From NCBI RefSeq assembly GCF_054482525.1, contig NZ_JBTHVG010000003.1: a stretch of DNA of 64,000 nt; one strand, written 5' to 3'. Below, in pieces: positions 1-61,234 of the stretch. Both the position numbers and the translations under genes were made by a program. The notes beneath the pieces were generated by a model that worked only from the letters and a program-made list of their open reading frames with translations, did no database searches and was not told the DNA's origin. Origin of the DNA: a plasmid. Position 1 is the first letter of the stretch; the number at the start of each line of letters is the position of its first letter.

Positions 1-876
1 ATGATTAAAAACAACGAGTTAATCCATCCTTTTGACGTAACCAGTAATGAATCAGGTAAGACTTATCAACTGACGCCTAACTCGTCCAAGTCGGTTCAGC
101 CCGTGGCCCTGTTGAGATTGAGTGTATTTACCCCTGTCGGCACAAAAGAAAACCGCGACCGAAACTTTGAAGTTGATGCCTCTGATGAGCTTTCGTGTAT
201 GGAAATTGCAAGATCGGAGGGTTATGACGACATCAAGATAACTGGTGTCAAACTATCTATGTCTACCGACTTTAAGTGCTGGCTCGGGATCATCATGGCT
301 TTCAGTAAATATGGTTTTACTTCCGAGAAGATTACCCTGACTTTTAACGAGTTTGCGAAGATGTGTGGTATCAGTTCAACAAACATCAACAAACGAACTC
401 GTGCGCGCTTTAAAGAGTCATTAATGAACCTTGCATCGGTAGTGCTTGCCTTCTCAGACTCTCGGAGTGGTCGGTTCACAGTAACGCATCTGGTGCAGAA
501 GGCTATGATTGATCCAAAAAGCGATACTGTTGAGTTGGTTGGGGATCCTTCTATGTGGGAACTGTATCGTTACGACCATAAGACATTGTTAAGCCTTCAG
601 GTTCTATACATTTTGGCTAAAAAAGAAGCTGCGCAATCTCTCTATATTTATTTTGAAGCAATGCCAGCTGGTACGTTGTTCGTTAATATGAAACGGTTGA
701 GGGAAAGGTTGCTTCTTACAACCCCTATTCGTACGCAAAACCAGATAATTCGTAAAGCAATGCGGGAACTTGAATCTATCGGATATCTCGATTATCAAGA
801 AGTTAAGAAAGGTCGCGACATACAATTTCAGATCTTCAAAAGAAGCCCTAAGCTGGCCCTCGCCAAACAAGGTTGA
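1..876 (+). CDS. repA: Plasmid replication initiator RepA, Rep_3 family (RepFIB-like)
   Basis: 291-aa ORF. By-eye similarity to E. coli RepFIB RepA (LTPNSSKSVQPVALLRLSVFTP near N-terminus, IGYLDYQEVKKGR near C-terminus). Followed by iteron-like repeats. ORF begins at window base 1, so completeness of the 5' end cannot be checked. Confidence 0.8.
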   Translation: MIKNNELIHPFDVTSNESGKTYQLTPNSSKSVQPVALLRLSVFTPVGTKENRDRNFEVDASDELSCMEIARSEGYDDIKITGVKLSMSTDFKCWLGIIMAFSKYGFTSEKITLTFNEFAKMCGISSTNINKRTRARFKESLMNLASVVLAFSDSRSGRFTVTHLVQKAMIDPKSDTVELVGDPSMWELYRYDHKTLLSLQVLYILAKKEAAQSLYIYFEAMPAGTLFVNMKRLRERLLLTTPIRTQNQIIRKAMRELESIGYLDYQEVKKGRDIQFQIFKRSPKLALAKQG

Positions 877-1109
877 AAGCTACCAGGTATGCACTGGTTA
901 TAACATGCTGAAAAATAAGTTATTTATCAGTGCTATGCTTAGTGCTTCTTTTACTACTGGTCTTACATCTCGGCTTAATGTGCAAAAAAGTAACTTTTCA
1001 AACGAACTCCTGACTATTCATCTGTATGCCTTTCTGGCTCAAGCGTACATGCTAGCCCATTCATTAAATGCCGTGGAGCAAGATGGTTTCGTGCGCACTC
1101 TATTCACGT

Positions 1110-1600
1110 GAATGCCTTTTGTGGATTACGCCTCTTACATTCATACAAATGCTTTTGATGTCGGTATCCCAAAAAATCATTCATTGAAATGCTTTTGTTT
1201 GCCACTGTATCCCGAGCATAGCTATGCAGTGGTATAAAAAGGCATTTTGGTGAATGGCATTAGGTCGAATGACACACAGTACAGCTTTGTTAAGAGCGAG
1301 AATGGTCCAAGACATCTATGACATTGGGCATCAGAAGGACTATGTGTTTGATATGAGATCAAAAAAATATCAGAAGCATCACAACTCCAATGGCATTCAA
1401 AGAAATGCCTTTGTTTTGTTAGTACACCAAACAACCCAAAATTCATGCAGTTATATCAAAGACTCATTCGCAAAAGGACTCAGCCAGAAAGCATTTGCTT
1501 AAATAGCATTGGCCAAAAGCATTCGAATGAATGATGTTCATATGGACAAGACAAAGTCCCACTCACGCCCAGAGGTGTAAAAGGCATTTAGATGAATGAC
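1110..1600. repeat. Iteron-like repeat cluster downstream of repA (core AATGCCTTTTG / CAAAAGGCATT in both orientations, about 8-9 copies)
   Basis: Repeated motifs seen directly: gtgaatgccttttgtgg, caaatgcttttgatg, gaaatgcttttgttt, aaaaggcattttggtgaatggcatt, gaaatgcctttgttttg, ccaaaagcattcgaatgaatg, taaaaggcatttagatgaatgac. No long ORF with coding character in this stretch. Confidence 0.55.
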
Positions 1601-2024
1601 GCACCGGCCGAGGATTGTATGTAGTTTCTCCAACTGATAGTTGCCGAACCAGGGAGCACAGTGATATGCGGCCTTCTCAGAATCAAGAGATAGATATTAA
1701 GGGAACAAAAAAGATTAGATATGAAGCTTAGTTACCTGCCCGATATCTAGTTAGAGCTTTTCAAACCATCAAAAGTGACTTTTATGCTTGAGGAGTCTCA
1801 TCAGCTTCAGGATTGAGCTTAACGTAATCTTACCCCCTCCCCTCTTTCAAACTTTTACTAAGCGTTCACTGGTACTTTTCAAAGATTATGCTTTAGGCCC
1901 CTTTGCTTAAAAATTCACCAATCGCTAAACGTTAAAAAAAGGGGGTTTATGCGAACGGAAGGATCGGAATAAAAAAGTATTATTCATTCGCGTTTACGTG
2001 AACTCAAATCTACACGGAGTAATT

Positions 2025-2378
2025 ATGGAACTTTCTTTAAATATTGGCCTTAGTGAAAAGAAATCTAACACGGCTGCACTTTTTAAAACAAAAAGCGCAA
2101 AAGTGATTTTGTTTGTTCTGCTGACCGTGCTTTTTTGCGGTCTGGCATATGCGGGTTCAGATGATGGGGCACTGGGAGATATTTGGTCATACATGAGTGA
2201 AAGTATGACTGGAGCTCCGGGCAAAATTCTGGCAGCCGCGATGTTGATCTCAAGCGTATATTTCTCTGTCCTTAAGCCTAACCCGGGCCTGGCACTGGTT
2301 TCATTATTCATGATGCTGGTAATGGCCAACGGCGAGAAAATTATCAGCACCTTTATGGATGCTGGCGTACCGCTGTAA
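2025..2378 (+). CDS. traA: Conjugative pilin precursor (TraA/TrhA-like)
   Basis: Small protein with a long leader, probable cleavage after LAYA, and a mature part with two hydrophobic segments. GGAG ribosome-binding site 7 bp upstream of the ATG at 2025 (the track ORF starts at 1998). Sits at the head of the traL-traE-traK-traB cluster. Confidence 0.5.
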   Translation: MELSLNIGLSEKKSNTAALFKTKSAKVILFVLLTVLFCGLAYAGSDDGALGDIWSYMSESMTGAPGKILAAAMLISSVYFSVLKPNPGLALVSLFMMLVMANGEKIISTFMDAGVPL

Positions 2379-2400
2379 TTTATTGTTAATCATGCATGAG

Positions 2401-2412: not shown

Positions 2413-3749
2413 ATAAGCGCTAACTTAAGGGTTGAACCATCTGAAGAATGCGACGCCTCGGTGCCTCGTTAAGACGATGCCTCGCGTTCTTCAATTGCGT
2501 TTTGTAGGCTGTCAGGGATACTGTCCCACGAATGGCCACCTGTAAGCTCCAGATGACCATTTTTGTTATTCTCCACAACGAGTTAGTTCTTCTTTTCGGA
2601 TCCGGCACTTCTGGGGGGGAAATCCAGCGATGGCTGGATTATGTCGTCAATTAAAAATGCGGCGAGTAGATTAGCAAATATCCACGCTTTCGCGAGTTCA
2701 GGTTCCTTTGCACGCAAAGCATCCAGGTGCAGCAAACTTTTGAGCCGCTTAAAAGCCAGTTCAATTTGCCATCGCAGACGGTAACAATCAGCCACTTGCT
2801 CTGCTGAATATTCATCTTCCGGTAATGATGTTAGCAATAGCACATGGCCCGCTGCTTCCAGCGTTTCCGCCTGAACTACTCGTCCTTTTCGACGATTCTC
2901 GCTGAGCAGTCGGGTTTTACTGATTAATGCTTTTTCGGGAGGAAGTGATACGGCAATGAGACGTGCCGGAAAGGGAGCTCCGGCTTTTTTATTACCTGAA
3001 TTGCCTATCATTACAGTGGTTTCACCGTTCTTACCGCAATCCAGCCCGCGCAGAAAACCCATCATGTCAAAGCGCATTCCTTCTGCAGTTAACCAGCGCA
3101 ATCCTCGCCAGTGAACCCGGACGATATAATCAGCTTCTCCAAAAGCAAGTGAGCGGATACATTCGGGACGCGAACCGAATCCCCGGTCAGCAATGCGTAT
3201 CTCGTCTGCCGTTTGCGCAAATCGGTCCAGCCGTTCAGCGTCTCTGCTGTCGGTTAGCTCAAAATCAGTGAACTGACAGGTATGAGGATCATATCCCATA
3301 TGTAGTCGCCATTCAGCGCTGCCGCCCCCGGGCGCACTGATTGCTGTTCCATCGACAAGACGCAATCTCTTTCCGCTTGTACAACCCGTAACTGCGGCGC
3401 GTACAGCAAGTGTTTGTGCGGCAAGTATGCCAAACCAGTCGGCGGCATTCCGCAGCCGCTTCAGGAGAGCCACGTCAGATAATGTTGCAACGTCATGGAG
3501 CTGAGCCCATGCAGTGACTTCACGTAATGACATCCCCCCGGGGCCGTAAGCCAGCCCCAGACGTAGCAGAGTTGCAGCATCACGAATTTCGCGGCGGCGG
3601 GTTAGAGCCCCGGCATTACGTGCCGAAGTATCCAGTTCTTCGGGCTTACCAATATGGGCCAGAATTGCTGACCAGTTATCGTGAGAGTAATTCATCGGCA
3701 CGTTAAATCATATCAGGCGTAATACCACAACCCTTAAGTTAGCGCTTAT
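2413..3749 (-). mobile_element. IS186-like insertion sequence (IS4 family), about 1337 bp, with terminal inverted repeats ATAAGCGCTAACTTAAGGGTTG
   Basis: Perfect inverted repeats at 2413-2434 and 3728-3749 enclose one transposase ORF. The protein sequence matches my recollection of the E. coli IS186 transposase (MNYSHDNWSAILAHIGKPEE...). Flanked by a 12-bp direct repeat. Confidence 0.85.
2583..3701 (-). CDS. insL: IS186 transposase (DDE, IS4 family)
   Basis: 372-aa ORF filling the IS. Recognised from memory as IS186 InsL-like; the true start may be the third codon (MNYSH...). Confidence 0.85.
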   Translation of the reverse strand: MPMNYSHDNWSAILAHIGKPEELDTSARNAGALTRRREIRDAATLLRLGLAYGPGGMSLREVTAWAQLHDVATLSDVALLKRLRNAADWFGILAAQTLAVRAAVTGCTSGKRLRLVDGTAISAPGGGSAEWRLHMGYDPHTCQFTDFELTDSRDAERLDRFAQTADEIRIADRGFGSRPECIRSLAFGEADYIVRVHWRGLRWLTAEGMRFDMMGFLRGLDCGKNGETTVMIGNSGNKKAGAPFPARLIAVSLPPEKALISKTRLLSENRRKGRVVQAETLEAAGHVLLLTSLPEDEYSAEQVADCYRLRWQIELAFKRLKSLLHLDALRAKEPELAKAWIFANLLAAFLIDDIIQPSLDFPPRSAGSEKKN

Positions 3750-3761
3750 GGGGTTCATCCC
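3750..3761. repeat. Target-site duplication (GGGGTTCATCCC), right copy, flanking IS186
   Basis: Same 12-mer as at 2401-2412, immediately outside the right inverted repeat. Confidence 0.7.
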
Positions 3762-4895: not shown

Positions 4896-6166
4896 TGATT
4901 AAAAAAAAGGGCTTAGGGTTCAACGCAATTACCGCATTGATCATGCTCACGACTTCGAACTGCGTAATCGCTGAAGAATACCAATTGCCAGCAACAATTA
5001 ATAACCCGGTTGTAATGCCAGTTGGTGCTGACGGATTTCAGAATGGAGCTGCAAAAGCCATTATTCCGGGTCAAGCTGGTTCTGAACAGTCAGGTGCACA
5101 AACAAACCTTAGTGAAGCCGGTAATGCGCAGGGACAAAAACCTACAACTGATCTCCCTACCGTGCAACTTTCCCCAGCCAGCAATGCTTCGCCTGCGGTA
5201 AGCGCTATTACTGGAGCATTATCAAATAATCCTAGTCTCCCCGGATTTGACGCACAGACCCGCTCTGGTGCAATTGATAGCTATGGGAGACCAACAGGTA
5301 CCTCTTCCCAGCAGAATGCAACCAATGCGACCGCCACGTCAAAAGCCGATGAACTTTATGTCGAAGCTCGTAACCGATATAAAGAAGTTCAGCGTGTAAA
5401 TGTGCCGCCTGGTGGGAATGTGGTACTGCCAGTTTCACGAGGACTTCAAAACAGAATATCGACCAGCTTCAAGAATGCTTCTGTCAGCACTTCTACCCCT
5501 GCTGAAGAGGCAAGCATATTTGTTAATGGTGGCGATGTCTTTATTTCAACTAATACCGATAAACCAATCGGGATTATGTTGTCGGAAGATCAGGTACCTG
5601 AATCGACCTATAACCTGACCCTGGTACCGCTTGATGTTCCCGGTGCGATGATTTCAGTTACTACATCTTTAAGCCCATCTATGCAAGCCAAACGTGAAAC
5701 CTCATTGGATAAGCAAAACTATGAGGAAATGTTGGCCCGCTCCCAGTCAGAAGAACTGGCTCCATCGGATCCAAAACAAGACGATCATAAACAAAGAATC
5801 ATTGATTTATTGACTCCTGTGGCTCTTGGTGAGGTCCCTTCAGGATTCAGTTTACAACAGGACCGACTTTCTCGTATTCCTGCGTCAGAGCAGTCCCCAT
5901 GTAACTTTAATATGTATGCAAAGCTCGGTCAGAGACTGGTTGGCTCACGTGAACTTATTGATGTAATTCTTGTGAAAAACGATAAACCATACGGTCAAAT
6001 CGTTGCTGATCAGCAGTGTATGGCAGAAGGCGTTATTGCAAGTGCTTTATTTGATAAAGCATACCTGCAACCGGGAGAAGAAACAGAGCTTTACATAGTC
6101 CGGGATAAATTGTTCAAGGAACGCGAGGCCCGGGTTACAACCAGACCAAGTCTAATCAGAAAATAA
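4895..6166 (+). CDS. traK: T4SS protein TraK-like (VirB9/secretin-like) with a long low-complexity N-terminal extension
   Basis: Signal peptide. C-terminus (ELYIVRDK...) resembles F TraK (DVYVIRDG). ATG at 4895 overlaps the traE stop (ATGA). About 424 aa versus about 240 in F; the N-terminal half is rich in A/S/T/Q/N/P. Confidence 0.55.
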   Translation: MIKKKGLGFNAITALIMLTTSNCVIAEEYQLPATINNPVVMPVGADGFQNGAAKAIIPGQAGSEQSGAQTNLSEAGNAQGQKPTTDLPTVQLSPASNASPAVSAITGALSNNPSLPGFDAQTRSGAIDSYGRPTGTSSQQNATNATATSKADELYVEARNRYKEVQRVNVPPGGNVVLPVSRGLQNRISTSFKNASVSTSTPAEEASIFVNGGDVFISTNTDKPIGIMLSEDQVPESTYNLTLVPLDVPGAMISVTTSLSPSMQAKRETSLDKQNYEEMLARSQSEELAPSDPKQDDHKQRIIDLLTPVALGEVPSGFSLQQDRLSRIPASEQSPCNFNMYAKLGQRLVGSRELIDVILVKNDKPYGQIVADQQCMAEGVIASALFDKAYLQPGEETELYIVRDKLFKEREARVTTRPSLIRK

Positions 6167-57478: not shown

Positions 57479-58459
57479 ATGAGCCTGGAGAAACGTATGA
57501 GTTATGACGATTTGCCCTATTTTCGTGACCAGATTCTGGAACGTATCGACTCGCTTAAGTGTTTTCTTTCGAACACCCCCCCGCTGATGGCAAACCTGAT
57601 GACTGTCTCCACCGTATCTCGAACAGAAGAGCGACTGAAGCAGGTTAAACCCATCAGGGTTAGTGTTAAAGACGATGCTTCGGTTGAGGAAATTATTCAG
57701 GCACTTACTGACATCTGTGTGGATGACATAGAGTCATTAAGTCATGATTCCACCAAAGTGACCACTAAATACCCGGGTCTTATCATTGTCCCAGAAAGAG
57801 CAGATCTTCTCGAAAGCTTGATCACATCTATAAATGAAGCAAAAAATGATTTTGCTGCGGCAATGAGGCGTATCGATAATAAAAAGAATGTCCGTTTTGA
57901 TAAAGTGCACAAGAAGCTCCCGGGCCTTGTCGCTATGCACTCAACAAGAAATGTCCTTTTCATCAAGTCCCAGCTTAAAAAAGTTACTTTTTCATGGCGG
58001 CTAAACCGAAACCAGGAAGTTAAAACAGCAGAGCAACTTGTGAGTTTGTTGGAGCGCAGGAGAGCCTCAGAAGTAAAAAATGTAGCAACTACCAATTTGA
58101 ATGTCGTGTCTAATATCGATAAGGCTTTACACCGTCTTGAATTTCACCCACTGAAGCAGGGCGAATCTTATCGCCTTTGTCGAACTAACTCTTTCCCTGT
58201 TCCGATTGCTCACATTTTTGCATTTAGGCCTGAAGGCCAGGAACGAAACGGGAATAAATATGCTGAGACTGATTATTCAGTAGTAAAAGCATCCTTGCCC
58301 ATTTTCGCAGCAGGCAACATACCTCAATTAAAAACGCTCTCTGACTGGGCTCCTGAAAACAGCCAGGGCCCGTCCAACCAACGGAAGCTGAGCCTGAAAT
58401 ATACAGAACTCGTGCCGGGGGCTGAGCTGGGCATTTTCATTGTCAGCCCCGAAAATTAA
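57479..58459 (+). CDS. Tus-like protein (replication terminus site-binding protein homologue)
   Basis: 326 aa. By-eye alignment to E. coli Tus in its signature region (FDKVHKKLPGLVAMHSTRNV versus [20 protein letters not shown]; FSW versus FGW). Similar length to Tus (309 aa). Confidence 0.45.
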   Translation: MSLEKRMSYDDLPYFRDQILERIDSLKCFLSNTPPLMANLMTVSTVSRTEERLKQVKPIRVSVKDDASVEEIIQALTDICVDDIESLSHDSTKVTTKYPGLIIVPERADLLESLITSINEAKNDFAAAMRRIDNKKNVRFDKVHKKLPGLVAMHSTRNVLFIKSQLKKVTFSWRLNRNQEVKTAEQLVSLLERRRASEVKNVATTNLNVVSNIDKALHRLEFHPLKQGESYRLCRTNSFPVPIAHIFAFRPEGQERNGNKYAETDYSVVKASLPIFAAGNIPQLKTLSDWAPENSQGPSNQRKLSLKYTELVPGAELGIFIVSPEN

Positions 58460-59675: not shown

Positions 59676-60860
59676 CTATTCATCAAAGGCATTTCGCATA
59701 AGCTTGATCATTGCTTTTTTACCAGCTTCAATATTACGAATGTAGCGCATAACCATTTCTTCATTCGACCAGTTCCCCATTTCCATAATCTGTGGTAGCG
59801 AGTAACCTTCAATATTTAGCTGTATCGCTCCGCCTACACGAACGCTGTGCCCTGTCCAGTAACGAGTTTTAGTCTCATTTGGATAAAGCTCATTCCACAT
59901 CTCTTTAAATGCTCGTAAAAGGGAATTTTTGCTGAGCATACCGGCATCGTCCACAGTGTCTTCTTCATCTTCATCGTTCAGAAGACTTTGCTTAGCACGA
60001 TAGGGTAGGTTATGCCTTTTAAGAAGTTCAGATAGCTCATTCCCCTTACTCCGAAGCTTCCAGCCGGGTGGCATATAGCCTGTATCATGGAAATTTACGG
60101 CCTGGAAAAGGAATTCATCCGGATGACTGTGCTGATCCATTTTCACGAGGTTCATCAATCTCAAGAGGCAGTTAGTTAACTGACGTGTCAGCCGGTAGGT
60201 AAGAAGTGTACTAATGTTCGTTTTTGTACGGTATACCGTCAGGTTAAATTCACCGGTCATACTATCCAGAGACAGATCTTTCAGACGTATACGTCGAATT
60301 TCGGATGAACGGAGCAGTGTTTCAAAGCCTGTCCAGATCAGGCACAGGTCACGAAGTTTACGAACTGAGTTTGTAGTACTGCGTAACTTTATCAGAGCCT
60401 TGAGATCGCCAATAAGAAAGGGAGTTGCCTGTTTAGTCGTCTTTCGCTTCCGGGCTTCCGATTGTTTTAAGGCTTCCAGCATGTACCATGCTTCAGACGT
60501 AATAATCCCGGGCAGGTTAAGCCCTTTTTTATGGATACTATTTAAGGCCTGAAGACAGCTGTTTATGCTGCTTCGTGACAATTTGCCTTCAAGATGCCCC
60601 ATAAACGCAAGCAGAGCGTCCTCAGACACGGGGAGCGAACTTACTGGCCAGTCTGTATGCAACCGGGCATTCGCCAGATACCATTCGTTCCATACTCGTA
60701 GCCAGTGCAGATAGGTTTTAGCAGTGTTGTATCTCAGATGGGAAAAGTAACGGATCAAGCGTGAAAGCTGTTTATCATGGTTGCCGAACGTTTCCAGCTG
60801 CTGATGCAATTCGCTTTCCGAAAACTGTCTGATCACTGATTGATTCTTCATCCTGCTCAC
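59676..60860 (-). CDS. Tyrosine site-specific recombinase (phage-integrase / XerC-D-like family)
   Basis: 394 aa. C-terminal catalytic region with a conserved His-x-x-Arg (HSVRVGGA) and a terminal Tyr (MRYIRN). N-terminal SAM-like core-binding region. Confidence 0.75.
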   Translation of the reverse strand: MSRMKNQSVIRQFSESELHQQLETFGNHDKQLSRLIRYFSHLRYNTAKTYLHWLRVWNEWYLANARLHTDWPVSSLPVSEDALLAFMGHLEGKLSRSSINSCLQALNSIHKKGLNLPGIITSEAWYMLEALKQSEARKRKTTKQATPFLIGDLKALIKLRSTTNSVRKLRDLCLIWTGFETLLRSSEIRRIRLKDLSLDSMTGEFNLTVYRTKTNISTLLTYRLTRQLTNCLLRLMNLVKMDQHSHPDEFLFQAVNFHDTGYMPPGWKLRSKGNELSELLKRHNLPYRAKQSLLNDEDEEDTVDDAGMLSKNSLLRAFKEMWNELYPNETKTRYWTGHSVRVGGAIQLNIEGYSLPQIMEMGNWSNEEMVMRYIRNIEAGKKAMIKLMRNAFDE

Positions 60861-61021: not shown

Positions 61022-61234
61022 ATGTCTGACACAAAGCAGTCTTATTTAATGAAATTCCGTAAGTGTAGTTCGTTCGAAACGCTCGAAAAAGTATTTGAAA
61101 GGTTATGTGAAAAAAACTCGGGTGTCGCCTCTCTTGAAATTTCTGGTGCTTATGATCATCGTAAAGCCGAACTGACAATGAAAAAGTTATATGACAAAGT
61201 TCCTGCGAGTGTGTGGACCTTTGTTCGCGAGTAA
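61022..61234 (+). CDS. hha: Hha/YmoA-family nucleoid-associated modulator
   Basis: By-eye match to E. coli Hha ([22 protein letters not shown] versus [44 protein letters not shown] versus [21 protein letters not shown]). Confidence 0.8.
   Translation: [70 protein letters not shown]

Follow-up and report, generated by a model that had tools for sequence, protein, structure and literature searches.

The start of the 64,000-nucleotide plasmid stretch analyzed here (the window) very probably comprises the initiator gene and the downstream iterons of RepHIA. This replicon, one of two that IncHI2 plasmids carry natively, is of the P1/RepFIB type, lies beside the Tra2 transfer block and would be controlled by a P1-like mechanism. 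The replicon is already known: it is the RepHIA module found natively in R478 and other IncHI2 resistance plasmids, and because this module is well known and native to IncHI2, its occurrence at the window start is ordinary. Judged by sequence comparison, RepHIA is only a distant cousin of RepFIB of the F plasmid.

The initiator belongs to the RepHIA lineage of IncHI2 plasmids

The product of the gene at 1-876 (called Rep for simplicity) matched the Pfam families Rep3_N (WH1; 30.3 bits, gathering cut-off 22.4) and Rep3_C (WH2; 21.9 bits, gathering cut-off 21.1). Foldseek searches with its AlphaFold model (pLDDT 77, pTM 0.72) returned domains 2-3 of RctB (E 5e-8), the complex of F RepE with operator DNA (E 3e-5) and a Rep WH1 domain (E 3e-3). 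The protein is a dual winged-helix Rep_3 iteron-type initiator of the RepE/pi/RepA class; a Rep_3 initiator had been predicted from the DNA, and the two domain scores above their cut-offs together with the fold matches bear this out. A PDB sequence search with Rep gave no match at E values up to 1, and an NCBIfam scan assigned no family to Rep, F RepFIB, RepHI2 or the IncHI1A Rep.

Megablast with positions 1-2400 matched only records that were at least 95% identical, all of the IncHI2 RepHIA lineage, and 1116 plasmid records were at least 99% identical, including R478 at its position 1. The R478 gene at that position encodes a Rep of 99.7% identity. Identity to the IncHI1A orthologue is 86%, and the same iteron core lies upstream and downstream of that gene; an IncHI1B-typed relative uses this core as well. 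All Rep identities quoted are BLAST pairwise values. The carriers were typed IncHI2A plus rep_cluster_1088, with MOBH, and we infer that IncHI2A is the one of the two MOB-suite labels that belongs to the gene at 1-876. The cloning of an autonomously replicating region of R478 was reported in 2001 by Page and colleagues, going by the title of their work, and they are said to have attributed iterons of up to 76 bp to R478. Since the other R478 replicon has repeats of ~81 bp, which fit such long iterons, the replicon at 1-876 was identified as RepHI1A(R478). That other replicon, RepHI2, lies at 260265-261353 in R478, 13.4 kb upstream of rep and outside the window, and tblastn found no second Rep paralogue in the 64-kb window. 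Published descriptions give repHIA as an 875/876-bp gene at position 1 and repHI2 as a 1089-bp gene (PMC10893270), and both are listed as core IncHI2 determinants (PMC10893270, PMC5034289).

An irregular iteron array follows the rep gene

The repeats downstream of rep share a unit of ~20 bp with the core ATTCAnnnnnATGCYTTT (ATTCANNNNNATGCYTTT). All eight exact matches to this core in the 64 kb fall within 1016-1597; chance alone would give 0.55, and none of 100 shuffled sequences reached eight. When the window was scored with a position weight matrix (PWM), the iterons of the array reached 22-28 bits and no site elsewhere exceeded 13 bits. The iterons (Table 1) occur in both orientations and are irregularly spaced, with start-to-start distances of 86, 37, 40, 59 bp and so on; because they are not tandem, a tandem-repeat finder returned only one trivial 15-bp row for the array. 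The block has neither a GATC cluster nor a strongly AT-rich tract. A terminator scan around rep gave the palindrome of the iteron as its sole match (six stem pairs, three of them G-C), and an Rfam scan of the whole window found no RNA family. Small open reading frames within the iteron field (e.g. 1254-1502) were considered as genes and rejected, as they are annotated in none of the related records examined.

The original prediction also pointed to a near DnaA box in this block. The string TGTGGATTA does occur there, at 1120-1128, adjoining iteron 2, but its reading as a DnaA box did not hold up: it does not fit the relaxed consensus TTWTNCACA, it is not conserved in the orthologous region of IncHI1A, and its occurrence is at chance level, since the window contains 30 one-mismatch versions of TTATCCACA, or roughly one every 2 kb. 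The relaxed consensus itself has 11 matches in the window against 9.0 expected, none of them at 1120-1128 and one at 979-987.

Table 1. Features of the replicon region and its junction with the transfer block (window coordinates).
Feature	Position	Strand	Remarks
repHIA (RepHI1A(R478)) initiator gene	1-876	+	291 aa, Rep_3 dual winged-helix protein
Downstream iteron array, mixed orientation	1015-1598		8 exact core matches, PWM scores, layout comparison
Iteron 1	1015-1034	+	TATTCATCTGTATGCCTTTC
Iteron 2	1101-1120	+	TATTCACGTGAATGCCTTTT
Predicted near DnaA box	1120-1128	-	TAATCCACA on - strand; judged a chance match
Iteron 3	1138-1157	+	CATTCATACAAATGCTTTTG
Iteron 4	1178-1197	+	CATTCATTGAAATGCTTTTG
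Iteron 5	1237-1256	-	CATTCACCAAAATGCCTTTT on - strand
Degenerate iteron, overlaps iteron 5	1252-1271	-	2 core mismatches
Degenerate iteron-like site, overlaps iteron 6	1388-1407	-	PWM 15.1 bits
Iteron 6	1394-1413	+	CATTCAAAGAAATGCCTTTG
Degenerate iteron	1486-1505	-	2 core mismatches
Iteron 7	1514-1533	-	CATTCATTCGAATGCTTTTG on - strand
Iteron 8	1579-1598	-	CATTCATCTAAATGCCTTTT on - strand
Spacer, iteron array to trhA	1599-2024		Repeatedly hit by IS insertions in relatives
trhA-like gene, first of the IncHI Tra2 block	2025-2378	+	117 aa; same gene after rep in relatives

Layout of the complete replicon and proposed control mechanism

Iterons had been described as flanking the initiator gene. 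The window is cut at the ATG of rep, and only the downstream set is therefore visible in it; the upstream set, which is seen only in complete records, completes the flanking arrangement outside the window but not within it. The order in complete plasmids is an AT-rich tract, a DnaA-box position, four to five GATC sites, four iterons, rep and 8-11 irregular iterons. In one complete record (L002, in its own numbering) the four upstream iterons lie at 5866-5948 with a phasing of 21-22 bp, and GATC sites are found at 5754, 5767, 5777, 5798 and 5843. The GC minimum (26-27%) is upstream of the GATC cluster. A simple scan for sigma-70 promoters upstream of rep found none. The GATC cluster and the ~21-bp-phased iterons reproduce the upstream origin layout of the P1 RepA/RepFIB type. 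The DnaA-box element of such origins is only weakly represented in IncHI2, because the sequences at this position in IncHI2/R478 (TTATCATTG TTTTCAACA) are degenerate, with two mismatches from the consensus; the tandem boxes of IncHI1A (TTATCCACG TTTTCCACA) are near-perfect. Between IncHI2 and IncHI1A, the DnaA-box position, the GATC repeats and the four phased upstream iterons are strongly conserved, whereas the downstream arrays differ in number and arrangement.

Because this layout matches oriR/incC-repA-incA of P1 as well as RepFIB of F, the block at 1015-1598 is most likely a control array and not the origin, i.e. a copy-control and incompatibility locus comparable to the incA locus of P1 and to RepFIB iterons E-K. 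Homology and layout thus point to an origin upstream and a control array downstream of the RepHIA initiator gene. If RepHIA works like its homologues P1 and RepFIB, monomers of Rep would bind the phased upstream iterons and, together with DnaA and the Dam-methylated GATC sites, would open the adjacent AT-rich DNA. As opening is expected at the AT-rich DNA beside the upstream iterons, going by P1 and RepFIB, the origin would lie just outside the window. Rep bound to the upstream iterons may also repress its own promoter, and the array at 1015-1598 may titrate Rep and pair with the origin iterons (handcuffing), which would keep the copy number down and account for incompatibility. Under such a P1/RepFIB-type model the fragment 1-2000 contains neither promoter nor origin and is therefore expected not to replicate on its own.

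Alternative roles of the replicon and its array

In IncHI2, RepHIA might serve only as a back-up replicon, decaying or subordinate, instead of being a full partner of RepHI2. This reading draws on the eroded DnaA boxes, on the reduction from ~17 iterons in IncHI1 to 8-11, and on the tolerance of IS1 in rep, which is found inserted there in some natural plasmids that still persist. We consider it rather unlikely; if it were true, RepHIA might mainly be an incompatibility or exclusion determinant against other H plasmids or, alternatively, a host- or temperature-specific origin.

Less likely still, and improbable in our view, is that replication starts in the block at 1015-1598 itself, where TGTGGATTA at 1120-1128 would be the DnaA box of the origin. 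Most of the iterons are located there, the DnaA-like 9-mer abuts iteron 2 with a relaxed consensus match nearby at 979-987, and some iteron plasmids have more than one origin. The irregular spacing and the two orientations are nevertheless unlike the 21-22 bp phasing of origin sets, the block lacks the GATC cluster and the strongly AT-rich tract, and the proposed box is at chance level. Moreover, the arrangement of the array differs between IncHI1A and IncHI2 while the upstream region is conserved, and the homologous blocks in P1 and RepFIB are control loci.

The junction of rep with the transfer block

The gene at 2025-2378, for which the name trhA follows IncHI Tra2 and not the annotation, is followed by trhL/E/K, htdO, trhB, htdT, trhV and trhC. 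An IS421-like insertion lies between trhA and trhL in the window. The rest of the window is IncHI backbone, and the predicted resemblance of its T4SS, double partition and Hha content to IncHI plasmids was confirmed by the trh/htd genes, by parAB plus parM and by Hha. One match to E. coli-type Ter sites was found, against 2.1 expected, and the plasmid has a Tus-like gene. A trhA-like gene also follows rep in R478, in the relative typed IncHI1A (48 aa compared, 54% identity) and in the IncHI1B-typed relative, and 1099 of 1119 records have an unbroken linkage of rep, iterons and trhA. Since the H-type plasmids examined all retain the linkage of rep to trhA, nothing has been 'joined' at the junction between rep and trhA. 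In two relatives, IS3-family elements are inserted in the spacer, at 1658-1663 and 1672-1675.

In all H-type relatives examined, the array is located between rep and trhA, next to a spacer that tolerates IS insertions. This might suggest that the array mainly serves the transfer operon: acting, for instance, as a roadblock or silencer that depends on Rep, it could couple the expression of trhA/Tra2 to replication or to copy number. Such a role is very improbable: a rep gene with a downstream array is also present without an adjacent transfer operon in P1, F RepFIB, RepHI2 and a Cronobacter plasmid, the IS insertions place 1.2-1.3 kb between array and trhA in circulating plasmids, and no sign of such coupling was found. 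The preferred reading of the array remains that of a copy-control and incompatibility locus.

The original prediction assigned the replicon to the IncFIB type and, from its position on an H-type backbone, suggested a multi-replicon or hybrid plasmid. Rep is indeed 43.6% identical to F RepFIB (E 4e-84) and the replicon layout is the same, some annotators call relatives of ~45% identity 'RepFIB replication protein A', and real IncHI2-IncFIB cointegrates exist (NZ_CP104501.1). A Cronobacter Rep with 62% identity to the present one is also typed IncFIB, a label that is broad. However, the FIB-typed Reps of F, pMT1 and Klebsiella are 56-67% identical among themselves and only 43-46% identical to Rep, which falls outside their cluster; the values for F RepFIB, FIB(K), pMT1, RepHI2 and P1 RepA all lie in this range of 43-46%, so that the identity to the FIB Reps is no higher than that to P1 RepA. 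The iterons, on which the specificity of incompatibility is based, are unrelated too: the RepFIB core ATAAGCTGTnGTnAG has no match in positions 1-2100 of the window and the HI core none in the FIB replicons of F, Klebsiella and pMT1, in both cases at up to two mismatches. Seven of eight carrier records bear no IncFIB label and are typed IncHI2A plus rep_cluster_1088, some of them also IncN or IncY; the eighth lists IncFIB in addition to IncHI2A, and because the label comes with a MOBF relaxase we regard this record as a cointegrate. An IncFIB replicon joined to an H-type transfer backbone, with a hybrid or cointegrate at the junction, is therefore already largely refuted and hardly credible, given also that every Megablast match of 1-2400 is of one lineage, that the junction of rep and trhA is kept in IncHI2, IncHI1A-typed and IncHI1B-typed plasmids and that repHIA is a core IncHI determinant in the literature (PMC5034289).

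As replicon and backbone are cognate, the argument from an F replicon on an H backbone to a hybrid fails. The plasmid type is multi-replicon nonetheless, but for another reason than the one originally given, namely the presence of RepHI2 upstream of rep in R478, and it is not a hybrid at this junction.

Implications for replicon typing

The main value of this analysis is the correction of the replicon reading. Genes for metal resistance as well as mcr, blaCTX-M and blaNDM have major carriers in the IncHI2 plasmids, whose epidemiology is driven by replicon calls; to call the module 'IncFIB joined to an H backbone' would falsely imply a hybrid plasmid. The terms 'RepFIB-like' and 'IncFIB' are applied loosely to the whole P1/RepFIB-type initiator radiation, and the label alone is therefore no proof of F ancestry. 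That the visible part of the replicon is probably the control array and not the origin also affects the design of mini-replicons and of curing cassettes; in RepFIB, the effective element for curing is the set of downstream iterons (PMC11983097).

Comparison with known replicons

RepHIA of R478 (Page et al., 2001; Gilmour et al., 2004) is the same replicon as the one described here: it too starts at record position 1 and is followed by this iteron array and by trhA; the two sequences differ by 14 substitutions in 1-1540 and by small indels in the spacer at 1610-1898. RepHI1A of IncHI1 (R27 type; Newnham and Taylor, 1994), seen here through the IncHI1A-typed plasmid p30155-1, which carries the 86% identical Rep, shares with IncHI2 the iteron core, the upstream GATC cluster, the four phased iterons and the linkage of rep to trhA. 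Its downstream array is larger, with three forward and ~14 reverse copies at a period of 43-44 bp compared with the 8-11 irregular copies of IncHI2, and the tandem DnaA boxes that are near-perfect in IncHI1A are eroded in IncHI2.

P1 RepA and Rep are 44.6% identical over 92% of the length (E 1e-66). The annotated order of the P1 replicon, with DnaA boxes, five Dam sites, five incC iterons containing PrepA, repA and nine incA iterons, is shared by RepHIA. P1 differs in its iteron sequence, in the number of iterons (5+9 compared with 4+8-11 in RepHIA) and in its DnaA boxes, which are perfect or nearly so; its replicon is followed by parAB, that of RepHIA by Tra2.

RepHI2 (RepHI2A), the paralogue on the same plasmid, has a Rep of 362 aa that is 43% identical to that of RepHIA and, with 51-57% identity to the FIB clade, is nearer to FIB than RepHIA is. 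Its general layout is the same, with 21-bp iterons ahead of the gene and, behind it, a repeat array made of ten units of ~81 bp.

RepFIB of F, P307 and pO157 shares with RepHIA a layout consisting in F of a DnaA box (perfect in F), five GATC sites, tandem upstream iterons and downstream iterons of mixed orientation. The FIB Reps are 30-60 aa longer than the RepHIA Rep, the RepFIB iteron is unrelated to that of RepHIA, and the incompatibility and replicon types differ. The origin of RepFIB is associated with the upstream iterons, and the downstream block is sufficient by itself to displace the replicon (PMC11983097); by analogy, handcuffing by the downstream iterons is likely to be common to RepFIB and RepHIA (PMC11983097).

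Identity of the replicon

The rep gene and adjoining iterons are RepHIA, the well-characterised, already known replicon that IncHI2 plasmids carry, here in its usual setting. At 99% identity or more, window 1-2400 is shared by 1116 PLSDB plasmids (from Escherichia, Salmonella, Enterobacter and Klebsiella, among others), and 966 of the 1119 records matching this segment are predicted to be conjugative. All eight carrier records examined show IncHI2A, rep_cluster_1088 and MPF_F, and six a MOBH relaxase. The core IncHI2 replication genes are repHIA (875/876 bp, position 1) and repHI2 (1089 bp), with parAB and parMR within tra2 (PMC10893270; PMC5034289). The first gene of R478 is the same gene (protein 99.7% identical), and RepHI2 of R478 (362 aa, R478 260265-261353) lies 13.4 kb upstream of rep, beyond the window; the original prediction of a multi-replicon plasmid was right, if incidentally. 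In 2001, Page et al. reportedly gave the names RepHI2A and RepHI1A(R478) to the two regions of R478 able to replicate autonomously, and R478 is credited with "up to 76-bp iterons". The RepHI2 replicon (R478 record L008, 34150-34978, 35466-36554 and 36794-37296) has 21-bp tandem iterons upstream and ten ~81-bp units downstream, each including an inverted pair of iteron-like sequences. These ~81-bp units fit the "up to 76-bp iterons", and the window replicon is therefore RepHI1A(R478), alias RepHIA.

The initiator protein

Both Rep_3 domains were detected above cut-off in Rep (Rep3_N 30.3 bits, cut-off 22.4; Rep3_C 21.9 bits, cut-off 21.1), in line with the family assigned originally. An AlphaFold model from an input alignment of seven sequences (pLDDT 77, pTM 0.72) matched RctB domains 2-3 (E 5e-8), operator-bound RepE of F (E 3e-5) and one Rep WH1 domain. 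Together, the Pfam domains and fold matches indicate that Rep is a dual winged-helix initiator of the iteron type. The initiator is dispensable in nature, since plasmids in which IS1 interrupts repHIA also carry RepHI2 and IncN replicons: in pSI115-1 (NZ_CP050763.1) the gene is broken at the position of window 674-682 with a 9-bp overlap at the breakpoints, NZ_CP050778.1 shows the same pattern, and these 190-kb plasmids come from Salmonella Indiana isolated from patients.

Iterons and upstream elements

The rep stop codon is followed by a repeat of ~20 bp. Across the whole 64 kb its core, ATTCANNNNNATGCYTTT, has eight exact copies, which without exception fall at 1016-1597 (five plus-strand, three minus-strand), compared with 0.55 expected by chance, and eight copies were reached in 0 of 100 shuffles. 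A weight matrix added three degenerate iterons; in the rest of the window no site exceeded 13 bits, compared with 22-28 bits for the exact copies. Start-to-start spacing is irregular (86, 37, 40, 59, 15, 136, 6, 92, 28 and 65 bp). The iteron block is real and statistically solid.

The upstream layout, covering 440 bp before the ATG, was read from the complete record of pEGY1-MCR-1 (L002), which is 100% identical to window 1-2400. The claim of flanking iterons held for the downstream set in the window and for an upstream set in the complete record; the flanking arrangement itself is invisible in a window that starts at the ATG. A near DnaA box had also been proposed within the iteron block, but it is not supported: TGTGGATTA at 1120-1128 (TAATCCACA on the opposite strand) fails TTWTNCACA and has no conserved counterpart in IncHI1A; one-mismatch TTATCCACA occurs 30 times in the window, a count that gives a ~25% chance of one per 600-bp block. 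The credible DnaA-box position lies upstream of the GATC cluster, beyond the window, where the tandem boxes are near-perfect in the IncHI1A-typed relative p30155-1 (L007 1231-1248, TTATCCACG TTTTCCACA) but eroded in IncHI2/R478. A Dam-family methyltransferase gene is also found on pEGY1-MCR-1, near the presumed RepHIA origin with its GATC repeat cluster, and might provide origin methylation in Dam-less hosts.

Positions of features in the window and in pEGY1-MCR-1 (L002)
Feature	Record	Position	Strand	Remarks
Dam-family methyltransferase gene	L002	1667-2440		~4.3 kb upstream of rep, beyond the window
AT-rich tract	L002	5550-5699		26-27% GC; farthest from rep of the upstream elements
Tandem DnaA-box position	L002	5731-5748		TTATCATTG TTTTCAACA; after AT-rich tract
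GATC sites	L002	5754, 5767, 5777, 5798, 5843		first four inside wAGATCAm repeats
Four iterons	L002	5866-5948		single orientation, spaced 21-22 bp; rep ATG 51 bp further on
repHIA ORF	window	1-876	+	291 codons
Inverted repeat, 16 nt	window	838-853 / 937-952		94% complementary; 3' end of rep / 61 bp beyond stop codon
Degenerate iterons	window	1252-1271, 1388-1407, 1486-1505
Hairpin, 13 nt	window	1898-1910 / 1932-1944		~80 bp upstream of trhA
IS421-like element (IS4 family)	window	2413-3749		1337 bp; 12-bp target duplication 2401-2412 / 3750-3761
Tus-like 'DNA replication terminus site-binding protein' gene	window	57497-58459
Tyrosine recombinase gene	window	~59676-60851	-
Hha/YmoA-family gene	window	61022-61234		noted originally; adjoins tyrosine recombinase gene

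Relation to IncFIB

By BLAST, Rep is 86% identical to its IncHI1A-typed orthologue, 87% to the Rep of an IncHI1B-typed, MOBH Citrobacter plasmid, 62% to that of a 61-kb non-mobilizable Cronobacter plasmid and 43-46% to each of F RepFIB, Klebsiella FIB(K), pMT1 RepA, P1 RepA and RepHI2. The FIB Reps of F, pMT1 and Klebsiella share 56-67% among themselves. On these identities "RepFIB-like" is fair at the family level, "P1 RepA-like" is equally true, and RepHI2 (51-57% to the same FIB Reps) is in fact the more FIB-like of the plasmid's two initiators.

At the level of replicon type, the original IncFIB assignment fails on iterons, megablast and carrier typing. The F RepFIB iteron ATAAGCTGTnGTnAG was not found in the RepHIA region, nor the HI iteron in three FIB replicons; megablast of window 1-2400 returned no F-type record among its matches; and seven of the eight carriers lack an IncFIB label. 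The eighth, NZ_CP104501.1, is a genuine cointegrate, given its MOBF relaxase and IncFIB on top of IncHI2A. The label itself is clearly a broad, heterogeneous bin, because Cronobacter dublinensis pA137-2 (L015 1-1320; 61 kb, non-mobilizable, typed IncFIB) encodes a Rep that shares 60-62% with RepHIA and less, 49%, with F RepFIB, and it has its own third iteron, GGCGGTTAYTTTCATAA. Its replicon keeps the order GATC-iterons-rep-iterons, with a perfect DnaA box adjoining the rep start.

The junction with the transfer backbone

As originally predicted, the rest of the window is an IncHI backbone (trhA/L/E/K, htdO, trhB, htdT, trhV, trhC, parA/parB, parM, trhN, trhI, rsp, a Tus-like gene and hha). 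The suggested hybrid origin by joining of replicon and backbone was not borne out: the rep-iterons-trhA block is unbroken in 1099 of 1119 records, its order is repeated in an IncHI1A-typed plasmid (TrhA 54% identical over the part available), and an IncHI1B-typed plasmid has rep, iteron array and trhA-, trhL- and trhE-like genes in this order. This shared order across IncHI2, IncHI1A- and IncHI1B-typed plasmids means that replicon and backbone diverged together, which a recent fusion does not fit.

Several insertions were observed nearby. The IS421-like element sits in the short trhA-trhL gap, parting trhA from the remaining Tra2 operon; pEGY1-MCR-1 and several further records share the insertion, and R478 lacks it. 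The array-to-trhA spacer (1599-2024) is a repeated IS target in relatives, with IS3-family insertions at 1658-1663 and 1672-1675, and in pSLK172-1 trhA is broken by ISApl1 at window position 2087 (insertions from loci L011, L012 and L013). As candidate targets of the Tus-like protein, E. coli-type Ter sites (GNRNGTTGTAAYKA, at most one mismatch) were not above chance within the window.

Comparison with P1 and RepFIB

The same iteron core as in RepHIA is found in the orthologous IncHI1A- and IncHI1B-typed replicons, which carry a regular tandem array of ~14 copies at 43-44 bp intervals in a single orientation (L007 2850-3431; L016 1401-2109). Downstream, the IncHI1A relative has three forward and ~14 reverse iterons with 43-44 bp periodicity, whereas IncHI2 has 8-11 irregular copies of mixed orientation. 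Between the two, the upstream elements are nearly invariant and the downstream array is remodelled, a pattern in keeping with constraint on the origin and greater plasticity of the control array. In RepFIB, experiments showed the upstream iterons to be part of the origin, and the downstream block by itself displaces the replicon, which was read as handcuffing (PMC11983097). Based on these experiments, the conservation pattern and the order of elements in P1 and RepFIB, we infer that the RepHIA origin would lie just upstream of the window, that Rep would autoregulate at the upstream iterons and that window 1015-1598 would be an incA-like locus for copy control and incompatibility. With the origin so placed, fragment 1-2000 should be unable to replicate autonomously. 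In the annotated P1 record, oriR is made up of DnaA boxes, then five Dam sites, then five 21-bp-spaced incC iterons with PrepA, and is followed by repA and nine incA iterons. F RepFIB opens with a perfect DnaA box and five GATC sites spaced 11 bp apart; next come tandem iterons, rep and, last, iterons of mixed orientation. RepHIA follows the same order, element for element.
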